A model generated the notes under the pieces. It searched no databases. It was given only the letters and a program-made list of their open reading frames with translations, and had not been told where the DNA came from. The translations under genes and the position numbers were made by a program. A stretch of 64,000 bases of DNA. It comes from a bacterium (GTDB lineage Bacteria; SAR324; XYD2-FULL-50-16). The DNA is taken from the NCBI GenBank assembly GCA_024275165.1, contig JAJRZQ010000038.1, positions 17,474-81,473 of the forward strand, read 5' to 3'. Shown piece by piece: positions 12,257-62,765 of the stretch. Within the stretch, counting starts at the first letter, position 1; each line of letters starts with the position of its first letter.

Positions 12257-14554
12257 ATGAATGCCTCACTTCGTTTTAAAGCCATAACCACCTTTGGGCT
12301 GCTTATATTCTTAACCTTTGTCGGAGCGTTTATCGTTAAACAAAACTTCGACGAGATTGAAAAGACGGGGCAGTATATTAACCTGCTTGGTCGCCAATGC
12401 ATGCTCAGTCAAGCGCAAACCAAAAATGTTCTCGCTTATAAGGAAACGGGTGAGAGGCGGCTGCTGGAGAAATACAGAATCCTGCACCGGGTTTTTGACG
12501 AAACCCTAAACGCCTTTCGTAAGGGAGGGCCGGCTCCCTTGGGTTTGCAGGGCAACAAGAAGATCACCGTTCCTCGGTTCTCCCCGGAACTCGAAAAGAT
12601 CGCCCTCGAGATTGAGGTGGTGGGAAAGAGCTATAAGGCTATTGTAGAAACGCTTTTAGCCTATGATGAAGATATGGCGGGATATAATATCTTGGTATCT
12701 AAACTCGCCGGCGAATCGGATCGCTTGTTGGAAAGCAGCGCCAAGCTGGTGCAGAGGTACCAGAATCATGTTGATGAGCTCCACGCAAATATTCAAAATA
12801 TTCTTTTTTGCGTGTCCTTCCTCCTGGCGCTTATTTTAGGCGGCATGGGGTATTATCTGATCCGCCAGATTATTGCCCCTATTTTAAAGCTCTTAGCGAT
12901 GATCGAGAAGATGAGTCAAGGGAATTTAGAATGCCGTTCGCAGATCAAGCGCAAAGATGAAATCGGGCAAATCGCCGAGGCCATGGATAAGCTTGCGGAA
13001 AACCTAGATAATATCATTGGGCAGATCATCGGCAATGCCGAGACCAACAACTCGATGGGAATCGGTTTGGTAAATGTCAGTCAAGGGATGCAAACCGCGA
13101 CCGAAGAAATGACAAATATGTCCAATACCATCGCTACCGCTTCGGAGGAAATCTCCACCAATATGTCGACCGTCGCTAGCGCCTCAGAGCAGGTCAGCGC
13201 CAATGTAAGCACCATAACCAGCACGGTGGAAGAGCTTTCTGCCAATATGAACACGATTGCCGCTGCCGCGGAAGAGGCGAGCGTGAACATGAATGGGATT
13301 AGCGATAATGTCGCTTCGATCTCCTCTGAAATCACCGGCGTCATTATCCAATCGGTGAGCAGCTTGGCCGAGGCCTTAACAGACATCAACCAAAACACCG
13401 CGAAGGCGAGCCAAATTTCTTTAGAGGCCAATAAAGGCTCAGAAGAAAACCAAGCGGCAATGGAAAAATTAGGGGAAGTGGCCCAAGAGATCGGTCAGAT
13501 TCTCCAGCTCATCAACAACATCGCGAGTCAAACCAATATGCTGGCACTCAACGCCACCATTGAGGCAGCGAGTGCGGGTCAGGCCGGCAAGGGCTTTGCC
13601 GTGGTGGCGGGAGAGGTCAAGGAATTGGCCAAGCAAACCACAGAGGCCAATAACGAAATCGCCAATCAAATCGATCAGGTGCAAGAATATGTATCCAATG
13701 TGCAGCAGCGGGCGGCCTCGGTGTCTAAAGTTATTTTGCAGGTTTCCGACATCAACCAAAATATCTCCAGCTTAGTGGGGGAACAGAATCAAAGCGCGCA
13801 AAAGCTGGTTACCGCGGTGGATTCGGTTGCCCAGGCCGTCAAAAATTCGGCCCTCAATGTAGAAGAGGCCGCCAGCGGGATCAGCGAGATCACCCGCAGC
13901 ACCTCCGAGGCCAGTAAAGGGGCAAAGGACGCTTCCACCAATGTAGCCGAAGCGGCATCGGGAGTAAAGGAAATCGCCCGCAGCTCCGCCGAGATCGCAA
14001 CGGGGGTGCAGAACATCAATAAAAATATTCAATCCATGGATGTGGTCATCAGCCGTAATCGTACGCACATTGAAAACGCGACTGAATATATCAACACCTT
14101 CACCCAGTTGACCGATGCGATGAAAGGCTTAGTGCAGTTTTTTGCCCAGAACTCCAGCACTTTCTTTTATTGGACCGACCAATTGTTGATCCATCATCCT
14201 TTGGTGGATAAGCAGCATAAAATGATTGTTGACGGCATTAACGCTCTGTTTCGCTCCATCAACAACAAACCGGGGAGTCTCAGCTTAGAAAATACCATGG
14301 CTGATTTTTTTCAAGTAACGCTACAGCATTTTGAGGATGAGCAGAAAATCTTTTTGGCTTCGGATTACCCCCTCAAGGAGGAGCATTTAGAAAAGCATAC
14401 GGATATCATTGACCAGTTAAAGGGGTTTGACCAACGGATTCGAGCAGGAGAAAAGGGTTTTGAAAATGAGTTGCTCGACTTTTTGAAAGAATGGCTGCAG
14501 GTTCATATTATTTTAACGGATCGAGGTTATAAGGCCTTTATCAAACAGGGATGA
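12257..14554 (+). CDS. Methyl-accepting chemotaxis protein with C-terminal hemerythrin domain
   Basis: TM, then [12 protein letters not shown] (NarX/PilJ-like), TM, HAMP (DEIGQIA), [14 protein letters not shown]; hemerythrin ligands DKQH, HFEDE, HLEKH and HIILTD. Confidence 0.92.
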
Positions 14555-19426: not shown

Positions 19427-20242
19427 TTAAAATTTCCGTTGGATTAAGATGCCTTGGGGGGTGAACCAAATTCCATATTTTCCCCTCAATTCATTCCAGG
19501 TTTGTGTTTGTTTCCAGTCTTTTTGTTTGTGCGCCGAATTCATTGCGCTGTAGATATTTCCCCCGTAAAAGAAGAGGGCAAAAAGCCCGAAACCCAGCCC
19601 TAAATCTTGTCGTTCAGCGGCCCAGGCCTCTTTAGCGGCAAAAGCAAAGGACAGGGTGAAAAAGGCGGCATAGCTGGCCTCTTGCCAACGGCCTAAATAA
19701 GCGCTCCCCATACCGGGAATCAAGGCGGATAAACCGCCTGCCAAAAGGGGAGAAGCCCCGGTAGGCTCAGGGAAGTTTTTTGCTTCAAGGGTAAATTTTT
19801 GAACTCGCGGCAGTTTGCTTTGCTCCAGCCAGGCTAGGCCTTTTTTTCTTTGTGCTTCGCGCAAGGGATAAGGGTCGGCGGGGCGTAAATCCAAATAGCA
19901 AAGTCCTAAAAGCAAGCGTTCTCGCTCTGTTAAGTTCGGTAAGGCTTCGAGGTAAGTAATCGCGGCTTGAACCTCACCGCCAGCGCGCCAGGCCCGCGCG
20001 ATATTCAAGCGTGCCCGGTCTGCTCGTTTCCCCTGGGGAAAATAAAACAAGAGTCGTTGGTATTCGCTAATCGCCCGATAATATTCCCCCTGATTGTATA
20101 ATTCTTGCCCATAGGAGAATAAATTTCCCTCCTGCAGGCGCAACTCCGCCCCTGTCAGCCAAAGGGGCGCAAAGAGCAATATAAAGAGGAGGCAGGATAA
20201 GCGCATGGCGAAGCGAAAAACATTAAAAAAATAGGGGATCAT
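19427..20242 (-). CDS. TPR-containing exported/membrane protein
   Basis: Signal-like N-terminus; YYRAISEYQRLLFYFP TPR (BamD-like); LSALIPGMG TM2-like motif. Abuts the helD-like start. Confidence 0.65.
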   Translation of the reverse strand: MIPYFFNVFRFAMRLSCLLFILLFAPLWLTGAELRLQEGNLFSYGQELYNQGEYYRAISEYQRLLFYFPQGKRADRARLNIARAWRAGGEVQAAITYLEALPNLTERERLLLGLCYLDLRPADPYPLREAQRKKGLAWLEQSKLPRVQKFTLEAKNFPEPTGASPLLAGGLSALIPGMGSAYLGRWQEASYAAFFTLSFAFAAKEAWAAERQDLGLGFGLFALFFYGGNIYSAMNSAHKQKDWKQTQTWNELRGKYGIWFTPQGILIQRKF

Positions 20243-20478
20243 TGCAACATAGCCTTTTCAAGGAGGCAAGAGCTAAGATGGGTCAGGTTGTTTTTTCCCC
20301 TTAGCAAAGAAGGGCAATTATGGTAATAATGAATAAGCCCATCCCAAGGTGTTTTTAGTTGTTTGGGCCGGGCAAAAAGAGCAATCAAGGCACAGGGTCG
20401 CTTGATTTTAGCAGGCAGTTTGGAGCCCTGAATACTCAGAGGTGGTTGCGCGTCAATCTAAATCCCCGCAAAGGAGCC

Positions 20479-23406
20479 ATGGATAAGCTTACCCACAGTC
20501 CTCGCGTTGAAAAAGAGATTCGTGAGTTAGGTTTGCGGCTCTTTTCCAGCATGCGGGGGAAGAGTCCAAGCCTTTTTGATTCAAGGTTTTGGCAGGGAAA
20601 GCTGATGGAAGTTGCCTTAAAAGACCCAAGCTTTAAAGTCGATTTATTCCGTTTTATTGATGTTTTCCCCACCTTGCGCGATCCCCAAGAGATTTCGAGT
20701 CATCTCGCGGAGTACTTGCTGAAAAAAGATCGCAGGCTACCCCGCCTTTTTGGGATGGCCTTAAAGGCGGCTCGTTTTAAGCTCACTGCCCCCTTGGCGG
20801 CAAAGAGCATCCAGGCGAATATGACTCGCTTGGCTCAGGGTTTTATTTTAGGTGAAACCCCTGCCGAGGCCTTGGGTGCCTTAAAAAAGATGGACGCCAA
20901 AGGAGTGGGGTTTAGCGTTGATCTTTTAGGGGAGGCGGTTTTTAGTGAAGATGAGGCGGCAAGCTATCGCGCCCGGTACCTTGAGCTGGTTGACTCACTC
21001 AGGGGGCAGCTTTTGACCTGGCCGGAAAACCCCCGTTTAGAGCAAAGCCCGCAGGGGCGGGGCAACCTCTCGCTCAAGGTTTCCGCCTTTGCGCCTCATT
21101 TGGACGCCGCCGACTTAAAAGGCAGCGTCAAACGCCTTTACGCCGCGCTTTTGCCGGTATTGCTTCAGGCGAAAGAGGGGGGGCTTTTTGTGAATCTTGA
21201 TTTAGAGCAATGGAGCCTGCACACGATCACCTATGCGCTTTTTAAAGAAATCCTATTGAGCGCTGAGTTCCGCTCTTACCCCAAGCTCGGCATTGTAGTG
21301 CAGGCTTATCACCACAGCGCGCCAGAGGATGTGAGGCAATTGCTCGCCTGGGCGGAGCAACGAGGTTGCCCCCTTTCGGTGCGGTTGGTCAAGGGGGCTT
21401 ACTGGGATTTTGAGGTTCTCAACGCCGGTTTGAGGGGCTACCCTTTGCCTCTATGGACCCAAAAAGGGGAGAGCGATTGCCGGTTTGAAGCTTTATCCCT
21501 AGAGTTGTTGAGGCACCATCAGATATTGCGTCCGGCCTTTGCCAGCCACAACCTGCGTAGCCTGGCCCATTTGCTCACCCATGCCCGCATCGCGGGCCTC
21601 AAGCCCGGGGATTACGAGATTCAGCTTTTAACCGGTATGGCCGAACCCCTGCGAGAGGCTTTGCTGCAAGAAGGGGAGTTGATTCGTCTTTATTGCCCTG
21701 TTGGGGGGCTTGTTCCCGGGTTGAGCTATTTGGTGCGTCGGCTTTTGGAAAACACCTCCAGCCAAGGTTTCATCAGCCAAAGCCTGCAAAAGGAAATAGA
21801 GCCCGAATTGTTGTTCTGCCCGCCGGAGGTGAACTCGGCCCCTTCCCCTAGTCCAGGGGAATGGAAAAACTGCCCGGAATTGGATTTTACGGATCCTGCC
21901 ATTTGCGAAGGCTTTGCCCAAGCGGTAGGACAGGTAAAAAGCAGCTTGCCCATTTTAGTGGGGGCAGCCAACAGAAAGGAACGCTTTACTCGCCTCTCCC
22001 CCAACGACCCGAAGCTGATCGTGACCCAAGCCTATTTAGCCGGTGAGCAGGAGGTCATTGAGGCGGTTCAAAGGGCGGCGCAAGCTTTTCCCTCTTGGCG
22101 GGATACCCCCTTAGAAGCTCGTGTCCAAGCCTTGGAACGCTTAGCCGATCTTTTGGAAAAAGACCGTTTTGCCTTAGCGGCCTTGCAATGTTTTGAGGTG
22201 GCCAAGCCTTGGCGAGAGGCGGATGGAGATGTGGCCGAAGCCATTGATTTTTGCCGCTATTACGCTCAGGCGGCCCGAACGGAATTGGCCCCGCGTGGGT
22301 TGGGGGATTTAGCGGGGGAAGAAAACCAACAAGAATTCATCGGCCGCGGCCCCGCGGCGATCATTGCCCCTTGGAACTTCCCCCTCGCTATTTTAACGGG
22401 GATGGCCACCGCTGCCTTGGTCGCGGGCAATCCGGTCTTGCTGAAACCGAGTCGCAACAGCTTGGCTCTCGGCCAAGTTTTGCATGGAAAAATGCTCGAA
22501 GCCGGTATTCCCCCTGAGGTGGCGCAGTTTTTACCTATTTCAGGCGAAAGAGCGGGCAAGCTTTTGGCGCGGGCAAAAGAAATTGCCCTCATCGCCTTTA
22601 CGGGAAGCAAGGAGGTAGGGCTTTCTTTATGGCATCAGGCCGCCCAAACCGAGCCGGGGCAAAGAGAGATTAAAAAAATGATCTGCGAGTTGGGGGGGAA
22701 GAACGCGATTATCATTGATGAGGACGCCGACATGGACGAGGCGGTTTCTGGGGTGTTGCAAAGCGCCTGGAGCTACGGGGGGCAAAAATGCAGCGCTGCC
22801 GATCGGGTGATTGTCGTGGGCAGGGCAAAAGACCAGTTCATCCCTCGCCTGATCGCGGCGGCTCAATGCCTGCGCCTCGCCCCTGCTTGGGACCCCGCCT
22901 GCCAAGTCCCCCCAATGATTGATTCTTTCGCCCAAGAACGGCTCTTGCGACTCTTGGACAACCCGCCCCCGGGAGTCAAGGAGCTGTACCGGGGCCAAGC
23001 GCCGGAAAAAGGTTATTTTGTGCCTCCTGCCATTTTTCAAACCAAGGAACCCAACCACCCCTTCATGCAAGAAGAATTTTTTGGCCCCCTCTTGACGCTT
23101 TGTCCGGTAAAGGACTTTGATCAAGCCTTGGAGGTCGCTATGAATACGGGCTACGCCCTCACGGGGAGCCTCTATTCAAGGTTGCCCAGCCATCTTGAGC
23201 GGGCAAAAAAAGAATTTTTGGTGGGGAACCTCTACCTCAACAAAGGCAGTACAGGGGCGAAGGTGGGGCGGCAACCCTTTGGGGGCCACGGCTTCAGTGG
23301 AGCAGGCACGCAGGCGGGAGGGCCGGGATACCTCTCCCACTTTGTCTTTCCCCGCTTGTGGAGCGAAAATCTGATGCGCCGCGGCTTTTCCCCCAAATTA
23401 CTTTAG
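20479..23406 (+). CDS. putA: Bifunctional proline dehydrogenase / P5C dehydrogenase PutA
   Basis: LFRFIDVFP, DLLGE, RLVKGAYWD and YLVRRLLEN; ALDH motifs PWNFP, ELGGKN, GQKCSA and EEFFGP. AAGGAG precedes ATG 20479. Confidence 0.93.
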   Translation: MDKLTHSPRVEKEIRELGLRLFSSMRGKSPSLFDSRFWQGKLMEVALKDPSFKVDLFRFIDVFPTLRDPQEISSHLAEYLLKKDRRLPRLFGMALKAARFKLTAPLAAKSIQANMTRLAQGFILGETPAEALGALKKMDAKGVGFSVDLLGEAVFSEDEAASYRARYLELVDSLRGQLLTWPENPRLEQSPQGRGNLSLKVSAFAPHLDAADLKGSVKRLYAALLPVLLQAKEGGLFVNLDLEQWSLHTITYALFKEILLSAEFRSYPKLGIVVQAYHHSAPEDVRQLLAWAEQRGCPLSVRLVKGAYWDFEVLNAGLRGYPLPLWTQKGESDCRFEALSLELLRHHQILRPAFASHNLRSLAHLLTHARIAGLKPGDYEIQLLTGMAEPLREALLQEGELIRLYCPVGGLVPGLSYLVRRLLENTSSQGFISQSLQKEIEPELLFCPPEVNSAPSPSPGEWKNCPELDFTDPAICEGFAQAVGQVKSSLPILVGAANRKERFTRLSPNDPKLIVTQAYLAGEQEVIEAVQRAAQAFPSWRDTPLEARVQALERLADLLEKDRFALAALQCFEVAKPWREADGDVAEAIDFCRYYAQAARTELAPRGLGDLAGEENQQEFIGRGPAAIIAPWNFPLAILTGMATAALVAGNPVLLKPSRNSLALGQVLHGKMLEAGIPPEVAQFLPISGERAGKLLARAKEIALIAFTGSKEVGLSLWHQAAQTEPGQREIKKMICELGGKNAIIIDEDADMDEAVSGVLQSAWSYGGQKCSAADRVIVVGRAKDQFIPRLIAAAQCLRLAPAWDPACQVPPMIDSFAQERLLRLLDNPPPGVKELYRGQAPEKGYFVPPAIFQTKEPNHPFMQEEFFGPLLTLCPVKDFDQALEVAMNTGYALTGSLYSRLPSHLERAKKEFLVGNLYLNKGSTGAKVGRQPFGGHGFSGAGTQAGGPGYLSHFVFPRLWSENLMRRGFSPKLL

Positions 23407-23414
23407 GGGGCTTG

Positions 23415-24644
23415 ATGGCGAGCCAAACCCTCATGCTGGAAGGTCACCTCTTAGACAGTCATCTTTTGTCCAAGGTCTTGGACTTGATCGAGGCCCAGGG
23501 CGGGTGCGCGAAGTTGGAACGAATCGAGTTGGGCATGCGCCGCCAAGACTTAAGCCGCGCTTGGGTCGAGGTAACCGCCTCTCGACAAAGCGCCCTTGAT
23601 GGCTTGCTCGCAAACTTGCGGCCCCTAGGTTGCGAAGCGGTGGAAGAGACGAAAAAAGGCGATTTGGTCTTAGCGCCCGCTCCCCTCGCGGGGTGCTTTC
23701 CCGCAAACTTTTACGCTACCAGCAACCGCCTTACGGAGGTCTATATTCAAGGTCGTTGGCTCGCGGTTACCCCTTCGGGCATGGACTGCGCGATTCGGGT
23801 CAGCTTGAGGGATTTAACGGCGGAGAGCGTTAAGATGTGGCAGGCAAAAAAGGGGGATTTGATTGTGGTGGGGGGGCGAGGGGTTCGAGTTGCGCCCTCT
23901 GCGGCGCTGGAGCCTGGTTCTGGCGAATTTGGTTTTATGGATTCATCGGTGAGCAGTGAAAAGCCCAAAGCCATTGCCATCCGCAGGCTTGCTCAAAGGA
24001 TGAAAGAAATCCGCGAAAAAAATCAGGGTTCGATTGTTTGGGTCGCGGGCCCCGCCTTGGTGCATACCGGGGCGAGGGAAGAGGCGGCCTGGTTGATCCG
24101 TGAAGGTTGGATCCACCGCCTTTTGGCCGGGAATGCCCTGGCGGCCCATGATATTGAAGCGGAGCTTTACGGCAGCAGTCTCGGGGTTTTTTTGGCTTCC
24201 GGTAAAGCCCAACGGCATGGGCACCGCAATCATCTCTACGCGATCAACGAAATTCGCCGATTGGGAGGGATCAAAGCAGCGGTAGAGCAGGGGGTGATTC
24301 AATCGGGGATTTTTTTTGAGGCGATTCAAAAACCCATTCCCTTTGTGTTGGCGGGAAGCATTCGCGATGACGGCCCTTTACCCGAAGTGATTACCGATGC
24401 CCTTGAGGCCCAAAAGGCAATGCGTCAAGAGCTTCAAGGGGCCGCCTTGGTGATCATGGTCTCCACCTTGCTGCATTCGATTGCCGTGGGGAATCTTTTG
24501 CCCGAAGGGGTCGAAACCTGGGCCGTGGACATCAACCCCGCGGCGCTCACGAAATTAGCGGATCGAGGGACGCATCACGCTCAGGGTTTGGTGATGGACG
24601 CAAAGTCGTTTATGGTCGCCTTGCTCCAGGCGTTGCGGGAATGA
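23415..24644 (+). CDS. TIGR00300 / LOR-SDH-family protein, putative ornithine cyclodeaminase (C-terminal part of ArgZ/AgrE)
   Basis: LEGHLLDS, FYATSN, MDC, FGFMDSSVSSE, GNALAAHDIE, AGSIRDDGPLP and KLADRG. Start refined to ATG 23415. Confidence 0.82.
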   Translation: MASQTLMLEGHLLDSHLLSKVLDLIEAQGGCAKLERIELGMRRQDLSRAWVEVTASRQSALDGLLANLRPLGCEAVEETKKGDLVLAPAPLAGCFPANFYATSNRLTEVYIQGRWLAVTPSGMDCAIRVSLRDLTAESVKMWQAKKGDLIVVGGRGVRVAPSAALEPGSGEFGFMDSSVSSEKPKAIAIRRLAQRMKEIREKNQGSIVWVAGPALVHTGAREEAAWLIREGWIHRLLAGNALAAHDIEAELYGSSLGVFLASGKAQRHGHRNHLYAINEIRRLGGIKAAVEQGVIQSGIFFEAIQKPIPFVLAGSIRDDGPLPEVITDALEAQKAMRQELQGAALVIMVSTLLHSIAVGNLLPEGVETWAVDINPAALTKLADRGTHHAQGLVMDAKSFMVALLQALRE

Positions 24645-25444
24645 GGCGGCTCTTGTTGTGCGCGCCTCGTTTTTATGGGGTGGAATACGAAATCAATCCC
24701 TGGATGAAGCTCAGCCGTCGGCCCGACCTCGCTTGCGCCTTGAGGCAGTGGGAGGCCTTGCGGCAAGCCTTAACCCGATTAGGCGCAACCATCGAACTGC
24801 TGGAGCCGCAACAAGGTTTGCCCGATTTGGTTTTTACCGCGAATGGGGCTTTAGTGAGGGGGGAGGAAGCGATTCTCAGCCGCTTTCGGCATTTAGAGCG
24901 GCAGGGGGAAGAGCCCCTGTTTCGCCGTTGGTTTGCGGCAAAAGGGTTTCGGCTATTAACCCTGCCTCAAGATATCGCCTTTGAAGGGGAGGGGGACGCC
25001 TTGTTTTGGGGAGGCGACCTCATCGCCGCTTATGGATTTCGTTCCCACATCCGTTCGCACCGCCTGATCAGCGAGATTTGGTCGATTCCCGTGGTTTCCC
25101 TGGCTTTGGTCGATCAGCGGTTTTATCATCTGGATACCTGCTTTTGCCCCTTGGATGAACACAGAGCCCTGTACTACCCTCCCGCCTTTGACGCCTATTC
25201 CCTGGCCGCTTTGCGGGGATTGGGCAAAGAGTTGATTGCCCTGGATGAGGCCGATGCCGTAGCTTTTGCCTGCAACGCCGTGGTCTTGGGTAAAGATGTG
25301 TTGATGCAGCCTTGTTCGCGGAGGTTGGAGGAAAAATTACGGCAAAGGGGGTTTCGTCTTCATTTGCTGCCGCTGGGGGAATATCTGAAAGCAGGAGGGA
25401 GCGCTAAGTGTTTAGGCCTCTATTTAGATAACCCCGTTTTTTAA
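24641..25444 (+). CDS. Amidinotransferase-fold guanidino hydrolase (arginine dihydrolase-like; N-terminal domain of ArgZ/AgrE)
   Basis: YEINPWM, PDLVFTAN, FEGEGD, FYHLDTCF, FACNAV and KAGGSAKCL (catalytic Cys). ATGA overlap with the upstream gene. Confidence 0.85.
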   Translation: MRRLLLCAPRFYGVEYEINPWMKLSRRPDLACALRQWEALRQALTRLGATIELLEPQQGLPDLVFTANGALVRGEEAILSRFRHLERQGEEPLFRRWFAAKGFRLLTLPQDIAFEGEGDALFWGGDLIAAYGFRSHIRSHRLISEIWSIPVVSLALVDQRFYHLDTCFCPLDEHRALYYPPAFDAYSLAALRGLGKELIALDEADAVAFACNAVVLGKDVLMQPCSRRLEEKLRQRGFRLHLLPLGEYLKAGGSAKCLGLYLDNPVF

Positions 25445-28146
25445 AGCTCTTCGAGAATCATTTTTCTCAATTCTTCCAAAAAGGCTTGCACCCGAGGGAT
25501 TTCAATGTTTTCGACCGCTTCTTTAAGCTTATAGGCGCTTTTCTTTAAGCTCTCGCAATGCTGATCCTCTTGCGCCAGATCCAGCAGACGGTTTGCCAGT
25601 CGCTCTACCGAATCCAAAACCAAACTGCCTTGCAGATGCTCGATCCAAGGGAGGATTTCTTTTTGAAATAAAGCGAGTAGGTTTTTGTTTTTCAAACAGT
25701 CGCAGAGGGTGATATTGCTGATGAGGGTCAGGGTCGTTTCAACCTGCAGGTGCTTGGCCAACTCACCATGCAGGGTTTGCAGGCCAACGGGTTTGGTGAG
25801 GTAGCCCGTAAAATTACTGGCTAGAACCCGCATCATGGTTTCGGGGGTGATGGAAGCGGTCACCGCGATAAAAAGAGGCCCTTGGTCTTTTATTTCCTTT
25901 TCCATCAGCTCAATCAATTCCAAACCGCTGATATCGGGCATGCGAATATCAATCAAGGCAATATCGTATTGATTTGTCCGTAGTTTTTCAATGGCTTGCA
26001 ACCCCGTTTCTACCTCGTCGACCACTAAATTCCACGAGAGCATGCCGACTTTAAGGTATTCGCGATTCGAGGCGATGTCGTCCACCAGCAAGATCTTGCC
26101 TTGCACAAAGGGGCTGAGCTGTACCAAGGGTTGTAAGAGTAGGCTGGGCTTTTTTTCTGGGGTTTTTTCCTGCTTGCTGCAAGGCACTCCGTTGAGCAGG
26201 AGTTTAAAACAGCTCCCCTTGCCCAAGGTGCTGGTCAATTCAATCTGCCCTCCCATCATTTCGATCAAGCGTTTGCTGATGGTTAGCCCGAGCCCCGTGC
26301 CTCCGAATTTTCTGGCGTCATGCCCTTCTTGCTGGGCAAAGACCTCAAAAACGCGCTCTTGTTGTTCTTCTGCGATGCCGATTCCCGTATCTTCGACTAA
26401 AATCTCGATATCCACGAGTTCGCCTAGGGTGCGCAGTAATTTTACCGATAAACGAATCCCTCCCTTTTCGGTGAATTTGATCGCGTTCCCCACGAGGTTT
26501 AAGAGAATTTGCCGCAATCGGGATTCATCTAAATAAACGAGTTTGGGTAAATTTGGATCGGTCTCCGCGAGTAGGCTCAACCCCTTTTTCTTTGCGGGTT
26601 CCGCAAAAATCTGCTCCACTTCGTTGATCAAGGGGGCTAAGCCGACTAACTCGGGGCGGATACTCATCGCCCCGGCTTCGATTTTAGAGAGGTCTAAAAT
26701 ATCGTTGATGAGGGTCAATAAACTTTTTCCCGCGACCTTGATGGATTGTAGATGTTCTTGACTCTGCTCATCTTGGATTTGATAACTTAAAATATCGGCA
26801 AAACCAAGGACGGCGTTTAGAGGGGTGCGGATTTCATGGCTCATGTTGGCTAAAAATTCGGATTTAGCGCGATTGGCCTGTTCCGCGATTTCTTTCGCTT
26901 CGGTTAAGGCGGCTTCAAAGGCCTTGCGCTCGGTGATATCCAGCAGTACTCCGATCAATCCCGCGGGCTTGCGGTCAAGGCCAAAAAAATGGGCATGGTA
27001 GACTAAAAAAAAGCGCTTTTTTCCTTGTCCGTCAGTGAGTTCGACTTCTCCCTGCAATTGTTCTTGCAAAAGGTTCATTCCTGGATTTTTCGAAGGCAGC
27101 ATGAGGGGGAACAGCTTCTCTAATTCAGGTTGATTTAAAGTGCCTGTTTCTCTCTTAAACAACATCTTAAAGGCGCGGTTCGACTCGATGAGTTGTCCTT
27201 CTTGATCTGTGTAAAATAGAGGGTTGGGCATGGATTCCATCAAATTTTGCTGAAAGATCAATTGGGCATCGAGGTCGCTTTGAATATTTTTTCTTTCTTC
27301 AATCTCATTATAAAGCAGTTGGTTGGTGCGGTGTAGTTCCTTGGTGCGTAGCCGAATCAACTGAGCTAAGTGGGAATTGAAGAACTGTTTTAAAATCGAA
27401 GCGGTTAGGGCAAAGCCCAAGAGGTTTAAACTCGCTACCGAGGTGAATAAAATCAGTCGATCATGATCAATCAAGCCGACCTGATATTTTACTCCTAGGG
27501 GGAAGAACAAGGCGGCTTTCATTCCCGCGTAATGCATTCCCGCAATGGCAAACCCCATTAGGTTGGCGGCTAAAAACTGTAGACCGAAGCTATGTTTTTT
27601 CCTGTAAAAGTAAAAGGTTAAAACAATGGCCCCTGTGGAGGCGATGATGGCAATGGCAATGGAGTAAATAAACCAATCGACTTGGTAAAGCAATTGGGCT
27701 GGCAAGCGCATTGCCGCCATTCCCGTGTAGTGCATAGCCGCGATGCCAAAACCTAAACCAACACCGGCAAGTAATAAGATGGGCCAGGAGAGGCTTTTAA
27801 CCCAGACCAATAAACCGAAGATAAACAAGGCGGCCCCAACGGCCAGGAGAAAGGATAAAAAAGTAAGCCCGATATCATAGCTAACGGGAAGGTTGAGCTG
27901 AAAGGCCAACATGCCCACAAAGTGCATGGACCAAATTCCCATACCCATAGCGAGCGCGCCGCCCAAATACCAGAGCCAAAACTCCAACCCCTCGCTATGG
28001 TGAATCTGTTGGGCCAAGTCCAAGGCCACATAAGAGGCAAAAATCGCCACGGCGACAGAAAGCCATACTATTTTAAAGTAATACTGTCCCTCGAGGGGGA
28101 CAAGACTTGGCGGATCAAGGAGGAAAAATTGCTGTAGCCAAGCCAT
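25441..28146 (-). CDS. Hybrid sensor kinase MHYT-PAS-HisKA-HATPase-REC
   Basis: MHFVGM, MHYTGM and MHYAGM repeats; FLANMSHEIRTPL; GGTGLGL; receiver VDD..DIRMP..KP. Confidence 0.92.
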   Translation of the reverse strand: MAWLQQFFLLDPPSLVPLEGQYYFKIVWLSVAVAIFASYVALDLAQQIHHSEGLEFWLWYLGGALAMGMGIWSMHFVGMLAFQLNLPVSYDIGLTFLSFLLAVGAALFIFGLLVWVKSLSWPILLLAGVGLGFGIAAMHYTGMAAMRLPAQLLYQVDWFIYSIAIAIIASTGAIVLTFYFYRKKHSFGLQFLAANLMGFAIAGMHYAGMKAALFFPLGVKYQVGLIDHDRLILFTSVASLNLLGFALTASILKQFFNSHLAQLIRLRTKELHRTNQLLYNEIEERKNIQSDLDAQLIFQQNLMESMPNPLFYTDQEGQLIESNRAFKMLFKRETGTLNQPELEKLFPLMLPSKNPGMNLLQEQLQGEVELTDGQGKKRFFLVYHAHFFGLDRKPAGLIGVLLDITERKAFEAALTEAKEIAEQANRAKSEFLANMSHEIRTPLNAVLGFADILSYQIQDEQSQEHLQSIKVAGKSLLTLINDILDLSKIEAGAMSIRPELVGLAPLINEVEQIFAEPAKKKGLSLLAETDPNLPKLVYLDESRLRQILLNLVGNAIKFTEKGGIRLSVKLLRTLGELVDIEILVEDTGIGIAEEQQERVFEVFAQQEGHDARKFGGTGLGLTISKRLIEMMGGQIELTSTLGKGSCFKLLLNGVPCSKQEKTPEKKPSLLLQPLVQLSPFVQGKILLVDDIASNREYLKVGMLSWNLVVDEVETGLQAIEKLRTNQYDIALIDIRMPDISGLELIELMEKEIKDQGPLFIAVTASITPETMMRVLASNFTGYLTKPVGLQTLHGELAKHLQVETTLTLISNITLCDCLKNKNLLALFQKEILPWIEHLQGSLVLDSVERLANRLLDLAQEDQHCESLKKSAYKLKEAVENIEIPRVQAFLEELRKMILEEL

Positions 28147-41700: not shown

Positions 41701-41850
41701 ACGATGCAGTAGGGCCACCGAATTGCGCAAAAGGCCAAAGGCCTCCAAGGCCGCTTGCTCCAATTTGGGGTGCGGAGGGTGATAAGGAAGTTCTAGATTA
41801 TACTTGGGGATACGCAGCAGCATCCCATCGAGTTCAATCAGCAGCGGCAT
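38749..41850 (-). CDS. Large CHAT-like / degenerate NTPase / TPR protein (1033 aa)
   Basis: N-terminal GEALFHAL..LPLELIHDG..FL pattern typical of CHAT domains; C-terminal helical TPR-like repeats. Overlaps the selB stop and ends 3 bp before the UGPase start. Confidence 0.6.
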   Translation of the reverse strand: MPLLIELDGMLLRIPKYNLELPYHPPHPKLEQAALEAFGLLRNSVALLHRSSRSERAEAMELLKAYGEALFHALIPLRLRPHLAKAKSLIFKLHGEAKQLPLELIHDGASFLALTIGVTRTFAGKLPPQFEKSRKINARLETALFSYSPIGEAPETSPHYGNRFITSMESLPLGLELSGHLHFQVNGQASRQAILKALQKEPDLFFFSGYDEAGSWLLYEEEPQPEPPPLSLKEAFMRAAARGLRVLLLNCSGFLSPSGGIEPYQDFGVPLILAQQGRLERSRTQTYFREWVLSVLREDSLLKAHRHALNQLYSTLPLSWDWAFMRFYVHEALLETEPEPLRPFFFAPFTSYGEHQPAVNGALLAERPFAGNPEILRQLYRHLLTAPQNKILWLRSLEGQSQEEYLLEFFRRIQARQNFSWKLLYYQRWGYHQGQTKNLTTGHFAGKFNSLFETERVLDYFDESLIPLQEGDDEGLHYLSVYYPPEKIDPIFELWLEKKQKQGWQVILLSHSSFVTEQPTLTLDTGTISLSEIQESLEEDFPPQWEEFLADGVPPQMRLLPLLRLIVGLKDEELIEAAGNPELDAAELYMHAFAQLLKTLSHRAKEVFLTLYLMRVRLSDKALCSLVGAEKLNPTLQGLLDLSVIECDLEKKRYWLPSHLWVQIKRQDFLPPDMLKHQGQVLLKNLVQLLEANQTETDFLRAGSQYALSELATLGLLEAAIQRNLQYARKLSRKCANRPNLISQHVITALELSFLSEDEALKEKSLLSALNILEHLPQSYNAVELLEWFLEEAQKNRNWPMVAEILTKLANLYTQRRQPERAVACLTSALQLSADISHYESRYKNLIAIALLFLELGEFDKLKRLIEGHEFDPALLSERQLSHLWLIDGHLLFYAGEYQAALTSLQHFLFKPSAEVSPALWGKSYVALASIYKQENNIEAFLRYTDRAATLLEEAGLLDEASEIHQDLAEIGEQEGNLKAAVTHLEWLFHYQQKRKQSGAASQIAHKLGGLFFKIDNQLKSTEYYKLAQGFKR

Positions 41851-43753
41851 TGTTTTTTTCTGATTCCCTCGCCAGAATGCGGTGATCTCCTAAGCGGATG
41901 GTGCGTTTTTCCCGGTCGAAATACTCTAAGATCAGTACGGCCTCTTTGCGAGACAAATCTAGAAGCTTTTTAAACCCGATCACCGTAATTTGCGGTTCTT
42001 TTGATAAATAAGTTTTTAATTCTTGCCAGGCCTTGTCTGTGGCAGCAGTACTTAAAAATTGATCTGTCGCCAGTTCGACCCACCAGCCACGCGTCTTCCC
42101 CAGGGCCAGCAACCTCGTTACGCCGCTCAGGCCTATTGTCAGCCCCCTTTGCAAAGTCGTTGGGCTTTGGGGCTTCATCCCCCCCTGTTTCAGTTTTAGG
42201 AGCAAGCTTTGTTTCAGCAAGACTTGTTCTGGGCTAAGGGCACCTGTAACGCCTTGAAGATGATAGAATTGAGCCGTTTTGACTAGGATTTTTTCTTTCT
42301 CCAGCCAGCTTAAAAAAAGCAAGGACTCGGCAGCGGAAAACAGCCGCTTGAGCTTTCCCGTAAAGTATTCCCCTGTGGCTCCGATTTCTTCAGGCTGTGC
42401 TTGATGAAACTGTTGCAATAGCTGGGTGATGTAGGGAATGATTCGTTGGAGGTGCTCTGGATGTCGCCAACTTGTTTTGAAGCGGAGGAGTTTGCCTTGA
42501 CTCGCGAGGTGTTGCAAGGGCTTGGCCGCTTTTTTTGGGGTTAGGCCCGTTAAGGGAAAAAGGTCTTTTTCTTCTATTCCCTTTAAGCCGTCAAATAGGG
42601 CAATAGCTTCAATGCGTTCTTCCGCGCTGCCTTGTTGAAGCTTATGCAGGGCCTCGTTCCTTTTGGCGCCCGAGATGCGCGTGAGGGGCTTTTTGGCTAA
42701 GACGACGATTGCCCCGGCAAGGGTTTCTTTGGGGTTAAAGGCGCGGAGGATTAAGCGGTCACCCCAGGCAAAGGCTAAGGTTTTTTCCAAGCGAAGGCGG
42801 AAAAATCCAGGCTCCAAAAGATTAAAGTCATAACCCTTGGGGGCGATTAAGCGGGCTGGGCTCTCTTGAGCGTGACTAAAGAGGGTTAAGCTCGCTTGGT
42901 CTTTGGGGCGAAAACGGGTTTGCGGCAACCATTCCAGCCAGATGTCGAGGTCTCTGCTTTCGCTTAAGCTGTTCGGGCTGGCTAGCTGGCAGCCTCTAGG
43001 GGTGTTGGAAGGAGCTCGCGATAGATTGATGGCGGCGCGCATTCCCGTAACGACTTGCTCAACGGCTTGGTTGCGGCTTTGCAACCCTCGTAATTTGACC
43101 TGTTTTTGCCCCGGATATAGCACGCAGGGGCTAGAGGTGGTTAAGGCGCCACGGCAGACGGTGCCCGTCACCACCTTGCCAAAGCCCTTGATTAAAAAAC
43201 CGCGGTCTATTGGGAGGCGAAAGGGCAGGCCCTGGGTTTGGGTTTGATGGAGAGGCGCCAAGCGCGTGATCGCTTTTTTTAAATCCTTTAGGCCTTCTCC
43301 TGTTTTGGCGGAGCAAACAATCAGGGGGGCCTGGGCTAAAAAACTCCCCTCTACAAGGTCTAAAACCTCTTCTTTGGTAACCTGCAAGCTCTCCGCGTCG
43401 GCTAAGTCGCAACGGGTTAAGGCGATGATTCCCTGGGGAACTCCTAAAAGTCGCGCGATTTGAAAGTGTTCTTTGGTTTGGGGCATCACCCCTTCATCCG
43501 CCGCGACCACCAAAATCACTCCGGTCAGCCCCCCTATGCCGGCAAGCATATTATGAATCAGGTCTTCATGGCCGGGAACATCAATGATAGAGACCTCTTT
43601 CCCCTCATAACTCAAGGAGGCGAAACCGAGGTCCAAGGTAATGCCTCGCTTTTTTTCCTCTGCCCAGCGGTCTGGGTCTTGCCCGGTCAAGGCCTGCACC
43701 AAGCTGGATTTGCCATGGTCGATATGGCCTAAGGTTGAAAGACAGACTTCCAT
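41834..43753 (-). CDS. selB: Selenocysteine-specific elongation factor SelB
   Basis: GHIDHGKS, EEKKRGITLDLGF, DVPGHE, IDRGF.IKGFG.VVTGT, and C-terminal winged-helix LSRK..LEYFD..RLGDHR. True start is ATG 43753. Confidence 0.92.
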   Translation of the reverse strand: MEVCLSTLGHIDHGKSSLVQALTGQDPDRWAEEKKRGITLDLGFASLSYEGKEVSIIDVPGHEDLIHNMLAGIGGLTGVILVVAADEGVMPQTKEHFQIARLLGVPQGIIALTRCDLADAESLQVTKEEVLDLVEGSFLAQAPLIVCSAKTGEGLKDLKKAITRLAPLHQTQTQGLPFRLPIDRGFLIKGFGKVVTGTVCRGALTTSSPCVLYPGQKQVKLRGLQSRNQAVEQVVTGMRAAINLSRAPSNTPRGCQLASPNSLSESRDLDIWLEWLPQTRFRPKDQASLTLFSHAQESPARLIAPKGYDFNLLEPGFFRLRLEKTLAFAWGDRLILRAFNPKETLAGAIVVLAKKPLTRISGAKRNEALHKLQQGSAEERIEAIALFDGLKGIEEKDLFPLTGLTPKKAAKPLQHLASQGKLLRFKTSWRHPEHLQRIIPYITQLLQQFHQAQPEEIGATGEYFTGKLKRLFSAAESLLFLSWLEKEKILVKTAQFYHLQGVTGALSPEQVLLKQSLLLKLKQGGMKPQSPTTLQRGLTIGLSGVTRLLALGKTRGWWVELATDQFLSTAATDKAWQELKTYLSKEPQITVIGFKKLLDLSRKEAVLILEYFDREKRTIRLGDHRILARESEKNNAAAD

Positions 43754-43997
43754 GGAACGCGAGAGCGGAAAAAGGGTTGCTGGAGGAAAGATAACCGAGG
43801 GGCCCAAGAATGGCCAGAGCGGGGAAGGAGGCAAGGCGGGCTACAGACTGCTCCTTTTGCTTTCGCAGAGTTCGCTTGAAGGCGGATCGCCTTGAGGATG
43901 CTCTGCCCGCATATAAACCCAATGCCTTCGCAGGCTGGGGCCAAAGGCCCCAGACCCCGGAACATGTTGCTTTATTGGGAACAGTCGATGCCCCGGA

Positions 43998-60099: not shown

Positions 60100-62765
60100 T
60101 TAAATATAAGAGCGTGGTAGGCGCTTGGTCCAACAAGACATGACATCATAGGTGACGGTTTTTGCCCAATCAGCGACCTGCATGACCGTAATTGTTTGGT
60201 CTTTTTGTTCCCCCAGCAAGATGACCTCATCCCCTATCTTGGCTTCCGGTAAATCAGTGACCTCAATCAGCATGGCATCCATGCTGTTGCCTCCCCTTTG
60301 GGGGCACAGCGCCCCGTGAACCAGCGCCTGGGCGGCGTTGCGCAGCCGGGGGTAGCCGTCCCCATACCCGAGAGGCAATACGGCGATGCGGGTGACCCGT
60401 TCTGCCTTAAAATGCATGCCGTAACCGCAAGAATCCCCCGGTCGCAATTCTTGCACATAGGCGATCTTGGTTTTTAACGACATGACGGGCTGCAAGGGCC
60501 CCTGAGCCGACTCAAGGCGGCGGCAGACCTTAGAGGGGTAGACTCCGCTGGGCAAAATACCCAAACGAACCAGGTCAAAATGCCCCTGGGGCAGGTCAAG
60601 GTATCCGCCGGAGTTGCAGGCATGCACCAAAGGCGGCCTTTTCCCTAAACTCGTCAAGGCGTCCACCACTTGGGCAAAGCGTCGCAGTTGCAGCTTGGCG
60701 AAAGTTTTATCCCGCTCGTCGGATTGGGCTAAATGAGTCATTAAACCTTCGAGTCGCAAGCCCGGCAAGGCTTGGATTTGCAAAAAAAGTTCTTTTGCCT
60801 GTTCCCAAGGCACGCCGTAACGCCCCATGCCCGTATCGACTTTTAAATGCACGGGCAGGATTTTGCCTAAGGAGAGGGCGATTTCACTGGCCTGGCAGGC
60901 TCGTTCCAAACTTTGAATTTGGATGCTCAAGCCTTCGGTGATAGCGGGGGTGAGTTCTTCCAAGGTACGCTCTCCAAAAACAAAGATCGGAAAGTCACGA
61001 ATTCCCCCCTGGCGAAGCTCCAAGGCCTCTTCTAAAAAAGCGACCCCCAAATAATCGCAACCCGCTTGAATCGCCGCCTTGGCGGCAGGCAACATCCCGA
61101 TGCCGAGGGCATCGTCCTTGACCACATGCATGATCTTTAACCCCTGGGGTTTATCTTGCATGATCTTTTTCCAGTTTGCGCCCAAACGCTGGAGGTTCAA
61201 TTCCAACACCGCTCGTTGGGGCGTGGGTTGGATCACTCCTTGAAAGAACTCCAAGGCCACGCCGCGATCGGAAAAAGGGATTTTTTTCTGTCCGATCTGC
61301 TGGTAGGTCTCATGGCCCTTGCCCGCGATCACCACCGCGTCCTTGGGGCCGGCCATGCCCAAAGCCAAGTGAATGGCCTGCCGGCGGTCGATTTGCTGGT
61401 AGAGTTGCGACCCCTTTGGCAATTCAATTCCTCGCAAAATATCTTGGTTGATTTGGGTTGGGTCTTCGCTTCTGGGGTTGTCTGAGGTTAAGATCAGCAC
61501 CTCTGCCTTGGCGCAGGCCGCTTTTCCCATGAGGGGGCGTTTTCCCCGGTCTCGCTCTCCGCCGCAGCCAAAGACCACGATGAGCCGCCCTGGGGTTAGG
61601 TTTTTGACCTCATGCAATATTTTCGCTAAGGAGTCGGGGGTATGGGCGTAATCAATGTAAACGGGAAAGGGACTGGCTAGATTGAGTTTTTCAAAGCGCC
61701 CCTCTACCGCTCGGCTGCTTGCCAAGCCCTTTTGGATTTGGTCTAATCCGACCCCTAAGCTAAAGGCGGCCCCAAAGGCGGCCAAGGCGTTATAGACATT
61801 AAAGAGCCCCGGCATGGGGAGTTGGATGTCCAGCAAGGGCTCGCCTCGGAGCCGCACCTCAAATAGGGTGGAGTCGCCTTTTGCGTCTTTGGGGTAGGCG
61901 GCTAGGTCTGCTTGAGGGTTTCGAACTCCATAGGTCAAGACTCGAACCTTCCCTTTTTGCAGCAGGCTGGGGGAAATGGCCCCTAGGACCTCTTTGGCAA
62001 TATCGTCATCTAAGTTGATTAAGGCGTAGGCGTTTTTCTGGCCCTGTCCCAGGGCCGCAAAATGCTTGAGTTTCGATTGTTTATAAGCTTCTAGGCTCCC
62101 ATGAAAATCTAAATGGTCTTGGCTGAGATTGGTGAAGATGGCGACATCAAAGTCTAAAGCGTGGTTGCGTTCAAAGGCAAGGCCGTGGCTGGTTACTTCC
62201 ATGATGATGTTTTCTACCCCTTCGGCCTTCATTTTTTGTCCAATGGCAAACAATTCGGTCGCCATGGGGTTGGAGAGATGGCTCGCCTCTTCCTTGCCAC
62301 TGGGGTAAAAGATTCCAATGGTGCCGATGGCCCCTGTTTTTTTCCCCTGAACCTGAAAGATGGAGTCTAGTAACTGGCTGGTGGTGGTTTTGCCATTGGT
62401 TCCCGTGACCCCAACAAGCCGCATCTGGGCAAAGGATCCCCAAAAAAATCTTTAATGATCAGAGCCATAGTCTGATTAAGCGGGCTCAACTCAACCAGAG
62501 TTACCCCAGGGGCTAAGTCCCGCAATTTGCCGGGTTCGGCAAAAAGGCAAATCGCCCCTTGCTCCATTGCCTGCTTGGCGTAATGTAAACTATGGGGCTT
62601 GAGGTGTACTTCTTGAAACTCTTCTTTTTCCAAACAGAAGTAGGCCCAGCCGGGGCGTACCTGGGTATAATCCCAAGTGAGCCCTTGAATCTCAATGTCT
62701 GTAGGGCCAATACAGGCGGCGGGCTCTAAAGAGGCAAGTAACTTAGAAAGCAGAACCGAGGTCAT
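60100..62765 (-). CDS. murE: MurE-alanine racemase fusion with an apparent 1-nt frameshift near 62430-62448
   Basis: ORF 62367-62765 encodes the Mur ligase N-domain. ORF 60100-62424 has GVTGTNGKTT, MEVTSH, DHLDFH, DYAHTPD, DNPR and AGKGHE, then Alr motifs VVK, HLKVDTGMGR, NSG, VRLG, GYG and GYGDG. Span is 2666 nt, one short of 889 codons. Confidence 0.85.

Follow-up and report, generated by a model that had tools for sequence, protein, structure and literature searches.

In cyanobacteria, an arginine catabolic pathway has been described in which AgrE acts together with PutA (Flores 2021, PMC8262935). The locus studied here raises the question of whether the same route, from arginine through ornithine and proline to glutamate, is laid out as a single operon in a bacterium of another lineage. 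It lies in a stretch of 64,000 nucleotides (nt) of contig JAJRZQ010000038.1 (GenBank assembly GCA_024275165.1, positions 17,474 to 81,473 of the forward strand; GTDB lineage SAR324), which is referred to below as the window. Three consecutive genes and one upstream site were considered (protein lengths in amino acids, aa):

20479-23406, plus strand: putA, 975 aa, short type without the DNA-binding domain; proposed step, proline to glutamate
23415-24644, plus strand: gene of a TIGR00300-family ornithine cyclodeaminase, 409 aa; proposed step, ornithine to proline and NH3
24641-25444, plus strand: gene of a standalone guanidino-group hydrolase resembling the N-terminal domain of ArgZ, 267 aa; proposed step, arginine to ornithine, 2 NH3 and CO2
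20301-20330, plus strand: weak candidate promoter-like site, TTAGCA and AATAAT separated by 18 nt, in the 236-nt gap 5' of putA

Judged from the sequences, these three genes probably form one catabolic operon leading from arginine to glutamate, a reading to which we give a probability of about 0.75. The evidence supports a known pathway, that of AgrE and PutA, in a split and putA-coupled version and in a new host lineage, and not a new kind of system. In the proposed pathway, the product of the third gene would act twice on the guanidino group of L-arginine, hydrolysing it to yield ornithine, CO2 and 2 NH3, which is the arginine dihydrolase reaction of the N-domain of ArgZ and AgrE. The product of the second gene would cyclise ornithine to proline with the release of a third NH3, and would use a nickel-pincer nucleotide cofactor provided by LarB, LarC and LarE of the host. 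PutA would then oxidise proline to glutamate. We infer both enzyme activities, the co-transcription of the genes and the physiological direction of the flux.

Arrangement of the three genes

The putA gene started with the ATG at 20479, behind a Shine-Dalgarno sequence (AAGGAG, 20471-20476), and ended with the TAG at 23404-23406. A gap of 8 nt (23407-23414) separated it from the cyclodeaminase gene, which extended from the ATG at 23415 to the TGA at 24642-24644, and the dihydrolase-like gene started with the ATG at 24641, so that the last two genes shared a 4-nt ATGA overlap. The 8-nt gap and the ATGA overlap point to coupled translation of the three genes. An alternative and longer GTG start of the cyclodeaminase gene was found at 23358; the TIGR00300 model aligned from residue 1 of the product that begins with the ATG at 23415. 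The promoter-like site was the only one found in 19900-25900, compared with a mean of 2.5 in shuffled sequences, and was not significant alone. No Rfam family reached the gathering score in the whole window, and none was found at E ≤1 in 20100-20600. The G+C content was 0.572 at 22001-24000, and the bins of the window spanned 0.45-0.57. The end of the dihydrolase-like gene (25444) overlapped by 4 nt with the end of a convergent gene on the minus strand (25441-28146), which encodes a hybrid histidine kinase with MHYT, PAS, HisKA, HATPase and receiver domains. A partial relative of this kinase was present in the locus of the related genome G084, where it did not adjoin the operon.

The PutA protein contained the Pfam domains PutA_N, Pro_dh and Aldedh in one chain and aligned over its full length with solved PutA chains, at 825 bits with 5ur2 (residues 10-972 to 6-981) and at 732 bits with 4nm9. 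Its score with the NCBIfam PutA equivalog was 569.2, under the cut-off of 747. The window putA was the sole Pro_dh match in the host genome.

The host genome (2.69 Mb, 47 contigs, 98.35% complete) was placed by the Obg protein of the window (343 aa). The nearest named relatives were metagenome bins labelled 'Deltaproteobacteria bacterium' (62-67% identity), a 'Candidatus Lambdaproteobacteria' bin (63%) and SAR324 cluster bins (52-60%); Nitrospina came next (51%). Based on this one marker, the host is therefore SAR324/'Lambdaproteobacteria'-like and not a cyanobacterium. Family searches of the host genome for arginase, classical ornithine cyclodeaminase and arginine deiminase gave no match. Both proC and argH were present, and the cyclodeaminase is thus not needed for proline synthesis.

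An earlier note on this DNA, made from the sequence alone, had described putA, the TIGR00300 gene and an amidinotransferase-fold gene as tightly coupled, with the two activities on separate proteins, in an order opposite to that of the cyanobacterial domains. Both descriptions hold, as the spacing and the common plus strand were read directly and the pair consists of two genes with the cyclodeaminase first. Its assignment of domains to the three genes agreed with the Pfam matches. The Cys of GGSAKC and the FYHLD motif, which it had called intact, stand in the third protein within KAGGSAKC and DQRFYHLDTCF. The arginine-ornithine-proline-glutamate route through AgrE and PutA on which it drew is a published one (PMC8262935), and its placement of the arrangement outside the cyanobacteria was borne out by the Obg relatives.

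The predicted cyclodeaminase and its candidate cofactor

The second protein carried the Pfam domains Saccharop_dh_N, ArgZ-like_C_1st and ArgZ-like_C_2nd. It passed TIGR00300, a family named in NCBIfam 'ornithine cyclodeaminase, nickel-pincer nucleotide-dependent', with 449.2 bits (cut-off 410.8), and residues 1-408 aligned with positions 1-405 of the 407 in the model. The protein aligned with residues 285-691 of AgrE at 311 bits and with ArgZ at 300 bits. The model of the bifunctional ArgZ (NF052231, cut-off 1025 bits) was not reached; each of the two window proteins matched its own part only, with 305.9 bits at positions 6-273 for the dihydrolase and 378 bits at positions 284-692 for the cyclodeaminase.

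According to PMC13524815, Desguin 2025 reported an ornithine cyclodeaminase that has a nickel-pincer adenine dinucleotide cofactor. The host genome encoded LarB, LarC and LarE, all above the cut-offs and with larE and larB adjacent; LarA had no match in this genome. The LarC search gave no match in E. coli, which served as a control. As with the standalone nickel-pincer TIGR00300 cyclodeaminases of Desguin 2025, cited in PMC13524815, the window protein belongs to the family by its cut-off, and by analogy with them it may depend on nickel. When the host LarB, LarC and LarE were used in tblastn searches, no lar neighbours were detected in 83 dihydrolase loci or 80 PutA loci.

The LarC match of the host was located at G000:C47:91858-92346 (locus L001:1483-2316, minus strand), with the model matching at residues 110-272. 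Of 15 kin genomes in which LarC matched, seven had similarly short frames (242-291 aa; genomes G070, G071 and G082-G087); the frames measured about 320-670 aa in the other eight of the family and elsewhere in the phylum.

The third protein resembles the N-domain of ArgZ

Over its full length, the third protein aligned with the N-domain of ArgZ (Sll1336, Synechocystis; 6jv0) at 274 bits (residues 3-266 to 27-294) and with that of AgrE (Alr4995, Anabaena; 6lrf) at 255 bits, while solved DDAHs reached at most 38 bits. Residues N68 (in FTAN), E115 and D119 (in FEGEGD), H163 and D165 (in FYHLD) and C257 (in GGSAKC) aligned with their counterparts in ArgZ and were invariant across 21 standalone homologues. 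The Cys, His, acidic residues and Asn are presumably the catalytic positions. In the ArgZ variant chain 6juz, a Ser occupied the Asn position that aligned with N68.

The window proteins thus share both modules and the proposed chemistry with AgrE and ArgZ, and the same downstream enzyme, PutA. The difference is that the modules are two separate genes in the window, with the cyclodeaminase first and directly behind putA.

Split and fused pairs across bacteria

Relatives of the third protein were surveyed with a profile in one genome per species, and the best 80 of at least 595 relatives (at least 600 stretches) were classified by tblastn and frame analysis, in which a cyclodeaminase match was robust at 150 bits or more. 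The 80 loci were distributed as follows:

Cyanobacteriota, 36 loci: 35 fused with the dihydrolase first, 0 split, 1 in the same order with a broken frame
Planctomycetota, 20 loci: 0 fused, 10 split with the cyclodeaminase first, 9 with the dihydrolase only, 1 cut by a contig end
Verrucomicrobiota, 20 loci: 1 fused, 14 split with the cyclodeaminase first, 3 with weak partial matches, 1 with the dihydrolase only, 1 cut
Chloroflexota, 1 locus: split, cyclodeaminase first
UBA2219 (L050), 1 locus: split, cyclodeaminase first
Melainabacteria, 1 locus: weak partial match, the contig ending 299 nt downstream
Unlabelled (L066), 1 locus: fused, dihydrolase first

Fused genes were found in 37 of these 80 best loci, 35 of them in Cyanobacteriota. 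An adjacent, co-directional pair with the cyclodeaminase first was present in 26 of the 80, that is, in 26 of the 44 non-cyanobacterial loci. When the three kin loci were added to these 26 pairs, the stop-to-start distance was 34 nt or less in 24 of the 29 split pairs, and a 4-nt overlap occurred in six. Because the cyclodeaminase is so constant a partner, whether fused or adjacent, ornithine is the likely product of the dihydrolase-like enzyme; no other argument for this product is as strong. The pairs of Planctomycetota, Verrucomicrobiota and Chloroflexota resembled the window pair in order, tight spacing and pattern of NCBIfam scores, at 43-50% identity for the cyclodeaminase and 46-53% for the dihydrolase; we found no characterisation of them. 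Unlike the window pair, none of the 26 had putA within 7 kb.

Trees were computed with a quick IQ-TREE search and SH-aLRT support, with a midpoint root that served the drawing alone. In the tree of the dihydrolase, fused forms made up one essentially cyanobacterial clade of 38 rows (starred support of 99). The window protein was a long branch outside this clade and had no starred grouping among the split forms. The cyclodeaminase tree contained 29 split-form rows, namely the window, three kin loci and the 25 of the 26 pairs with a near-full-length match, and a branch with starred support of 100 parted all 29, the window included, from the fused forms. The window grouped with the related genomes G083 and G084 (starred 96), and then with G082 and UBA2219 (starred 96). 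These placements indicate that the window genes are ordinary members of a broad split class and not a recently broken cyanobacterial gene. No paper on the adjacent split pair was found in the literature; split forms may already be described in the primary literature on ArgZ, AgrE and the cofactor.

Some loci of the survey departed from these patterns. Nine of the 20 Planctomycetota loci (L010, L018, L019, L021, L029, L044, L068, L072 and L073) had an ArgZ-N-like gene with no TIGR00300 gene within at least 1.4 kb on either side, and ornithine in those nine genomes may go to another enzyme. In Verrucomicrobiota, an open reading frame (ORF) of 144 aa (L030:6564-6998) matched only the first ~80 residues of the cyclodeaminase (60 bits) and overlapped the start of the dihydrolase by 4 nt. 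Similar weak partial matches (57-58 bits) were seen in L015 and L041, and the three may be remnants or a free-standing N-domain. The locus L048, labelled Verrucomicrobiae, had a fused gene of the cyanobacterial type inside the fused clade, which could be explained by horizontal transfer or a binning error.

Linkage to putA in related genomes

The dihydrolase gene was found in four of 88 genomes of the phylum, all from one family, and a strong full-length TIGR00300 match (400-484 bits) was found in the same four. A shorter TIGR00300 form scored 244-252 bits in two further genomes, and the rest of the phylum gave 42 bits or less. Within the family of 19 genomes, the PutA type of the window was likewise confined to these four, and it scored 950-1059 bits in the three kin. 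In nine others the PutA matches of 172-214 bits covered the aldehyde dehydrogenase half only, and the remaining six had no match at E ≤1e-50. In three of the four genomes that carry the genes (the host, G083 and G084), putA was linked to the pair. Both G083 and G084 had the triplet in the same order, its genes spaced by 7 nt and then overlapping by 4 nt, at 47-51% protein identity. None of ten flanking window genes tested was conserved beside the operon in G083 or G084. The maintenance of order and spacing at 47-51% identity indicates that the arrangement is more than chance. The coupling to putA is the sole unusual trait of the locus; the split pair itself is common outside cyanobacteria.

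The earlier note had called for alignments with ArgZ and AgrE, trees and a survey of putA neighbourhoods. The alignments agreed with its view that the third protein is like the ArgZ/AgrE dihydrolase (274 and 255 bits, against at most 38 to solved DDAHs) and that the TIGR00300 protein is like the C-terminal part of AgrE (311 bits, with the family cut-off passed). The trees set the third protein outside the fused clade and the cyclodeaminase with the split forms, and, among the loci surveyed, the triplet was seen beyond the host only in G083 and G084. What did not stand was the implied rarity of the split, reversed pair, which 26 of the 44 non-cyanobacterial loci carry and whose cyclodeaminase NCBIfam already names.

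Alternative explanations

Several results weigh against an operon for arginine-to-glutamate catabolism. The third protein scored 298.2 bits with NF052232 (arginine dihydrolase) and missed the cut-off of 450, and its 276.3 bits with NF045659 (dimethylargininase, cut-off 300) came near that score. No published assay of any standalone form was found. In G082, putA and the cyclodeaminase-dihydrolase pair were on separate contigs, and no PutA end was present in the 366-444 nt upstream of the pair, which is near the contig start. PutA was found within 7 kb in one of the 80 best loci, that of a cyanobacterium (L035; one of 36 cyanobacterial loci), and in none of the 26 other split loci. A set of 80 metagenomic loci that encode PutA relatives of 36-50% identity contained neither partner gene; 49 of these loci included the end of PutA and at least 2 kb beyond it. 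LarC was present in 54 of the 88 genomes of the phylum, mostly without TIGR00300, and being so common irrespective of TIGR00300 it is a mere necessary condition and not specific evidence; moreover, the LarC ORF of the host was short (277 aa).

The scores of the third protein bear on an alternative in which its gene encodes a DDAH or an enzyme of the deiminase type, with citrulline as its end product or methylated arginines as its substrates, so that no straight route would lead from arginine to ornithine. Its sole Pfam match was DDAH_eukar, a broad family (35.6 bits, cut-off 23), and its relatives are labelled 'N-dimethylarginine dimethylaminohydrolase' or 'arginine deiminase-related'; the NF045659 score was close both to its cut-off and to the score with NF052232. 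However, all nine standalone forms tested were under the cut-offs (260.6-298.2 with NF052232 and 243.2-276.3 with NF045659), and two cyanobacterial N-domains scored 520-536 and 237-244, respectively. Since genuine ArgZ N-domains also score 237-244 with NF045659, this model does not separate the activities, and since all nine standalone forms fall below the NF052232 cut-off and the cyanobacterial N-domains above it, that cut-off appears to be fitted to the fused forms. The other two DDAH equivalog models were missed by the third protein (NF045660, 51.7 against 340; NF045658, 29.8 against 450). The Pfam family ADI (PF02274) had no match in the third protein at E ≤0.001 and none in the host genome, solved DDAHs were far more distant from the third protein than ArgZ, and the cyclodeaminase, constantly adjacent or fused, does not take citrulline. 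In M. tuberculosis, Rv2323c is a DDAH by annotation, and according to PMC4569260 growth on arginine requires it, as does the passage of carbon from arginine into proline and glutamate. Like the window protein, Rv2323c is standalone. Its neighbouring ornithine-consuming gene in the rocD/rocE cluster is the aminotransferase rocD and not a TIGR00300 cyclodeaminase, and our trees included neither Rv2323c nor actinobacterial 'DDAH' proteins. NF045659, a model that takes its name from an M. tuberculosis dimethylargininase, was probably built on Rv2323c. With a score below the NF052232 cut-off and a near-equal one for NF045659, the reaction of the third protein is not fixed by its sequence alone; the protein is not certified as an arginine dihydrolase by the NCBI rule, and its function rests on context. 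The DDAH or deiminase explanation is weak, and we regard it as improbable.

The pair might instead serve proline supply, as proposed for methanogens, or a nitrogen or pH balance through NH3 release, and the adjacency of putA would then reflect regulation only. A preprint (10.64898/2026.05.14.724635) describes a standalone ArgZ-N homologue and a cyclodeaminase for arginine-to-proline conversion in Coxiella, where the genes are not adjacent, and proposes ammonia release for pH homeostasis. Also in favour of this explanation, TIGR00300 matched two archaeal control genomes, and putA is not near most split pairs elsewhere. Against it, the host has proC and argH and does not need the route for proline, PutA is closely coupled in translation upstream of the pair in three genomes, and its type co-occurs exactly with the pair in four of the 19 family genomes; a role in supply or pH balance is thus unlikely here. 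A chance adjacency or a recent insertion with no functional unit would fit the somewhat raised G+C content at 22001-24000 and the separate contig of putA in G082, but it is hard to reconcile with the order and spacing that G083 and G084 keep with proteins about 50% identical and flanks that are unrelated, or with the exact co-occurrence of the three genes, and we consider it very unlikely. One operon for arginine catabolism to glutamate is the explanation we prefer.

Other genes of the window

Three further genes of the window were recorded. A single ORF of 774 aa at 60100-62424 (minus strand) encoded the middle and C-terminal domains of a Mur ligase together with an entire alanine racemase; such a fusion of two steps of cell-wall precursor synthesis looks uncommon. 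A methyl-accepting chemotaxis protein with a C-terminal hemerythrin domain was encoded at 12257-14554 (plus strand). The gene at 41834-43834 (minus strand) encoded an elongation factor of the SelB type, which implies the use of selenocysteine in the host genome.

Implications

Neither the enzymes nor the pathway is of a new kind, split pairs are frequent among public genomes, and the cyclodeaminase already goes by that name in a curated model. Within these limits, the genomic context alone sets out the whole route from arginine to glutamate as one predicted transcription unit outside the cyanobacteria. The three genes offer a compact set for studying the standalone enzymes and a possible nickel dependence of arginine catabolism in this host. 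Tentatively, and at somewhat less than even odds, the split pair with the cyclodeaminase first may be the general form in bacteria of a route from arginine to proline that depends on a nickel cofactor, and ArgZ/AgrE would have arisen from it by a single fusion with inverted order. The SAR324-like family would have joined this pair to putA as a module that was moved or inherited whole, and the module would be the only recognisable arginine degradation of the host and would tie it to the supply of nickel. The locus lends support to the view that the arginine dihydrolase pathway occurs widely among heterotrophic bacteria, in genes mostly annotated as 'DDAH' or 'arginine deiminase-related'.

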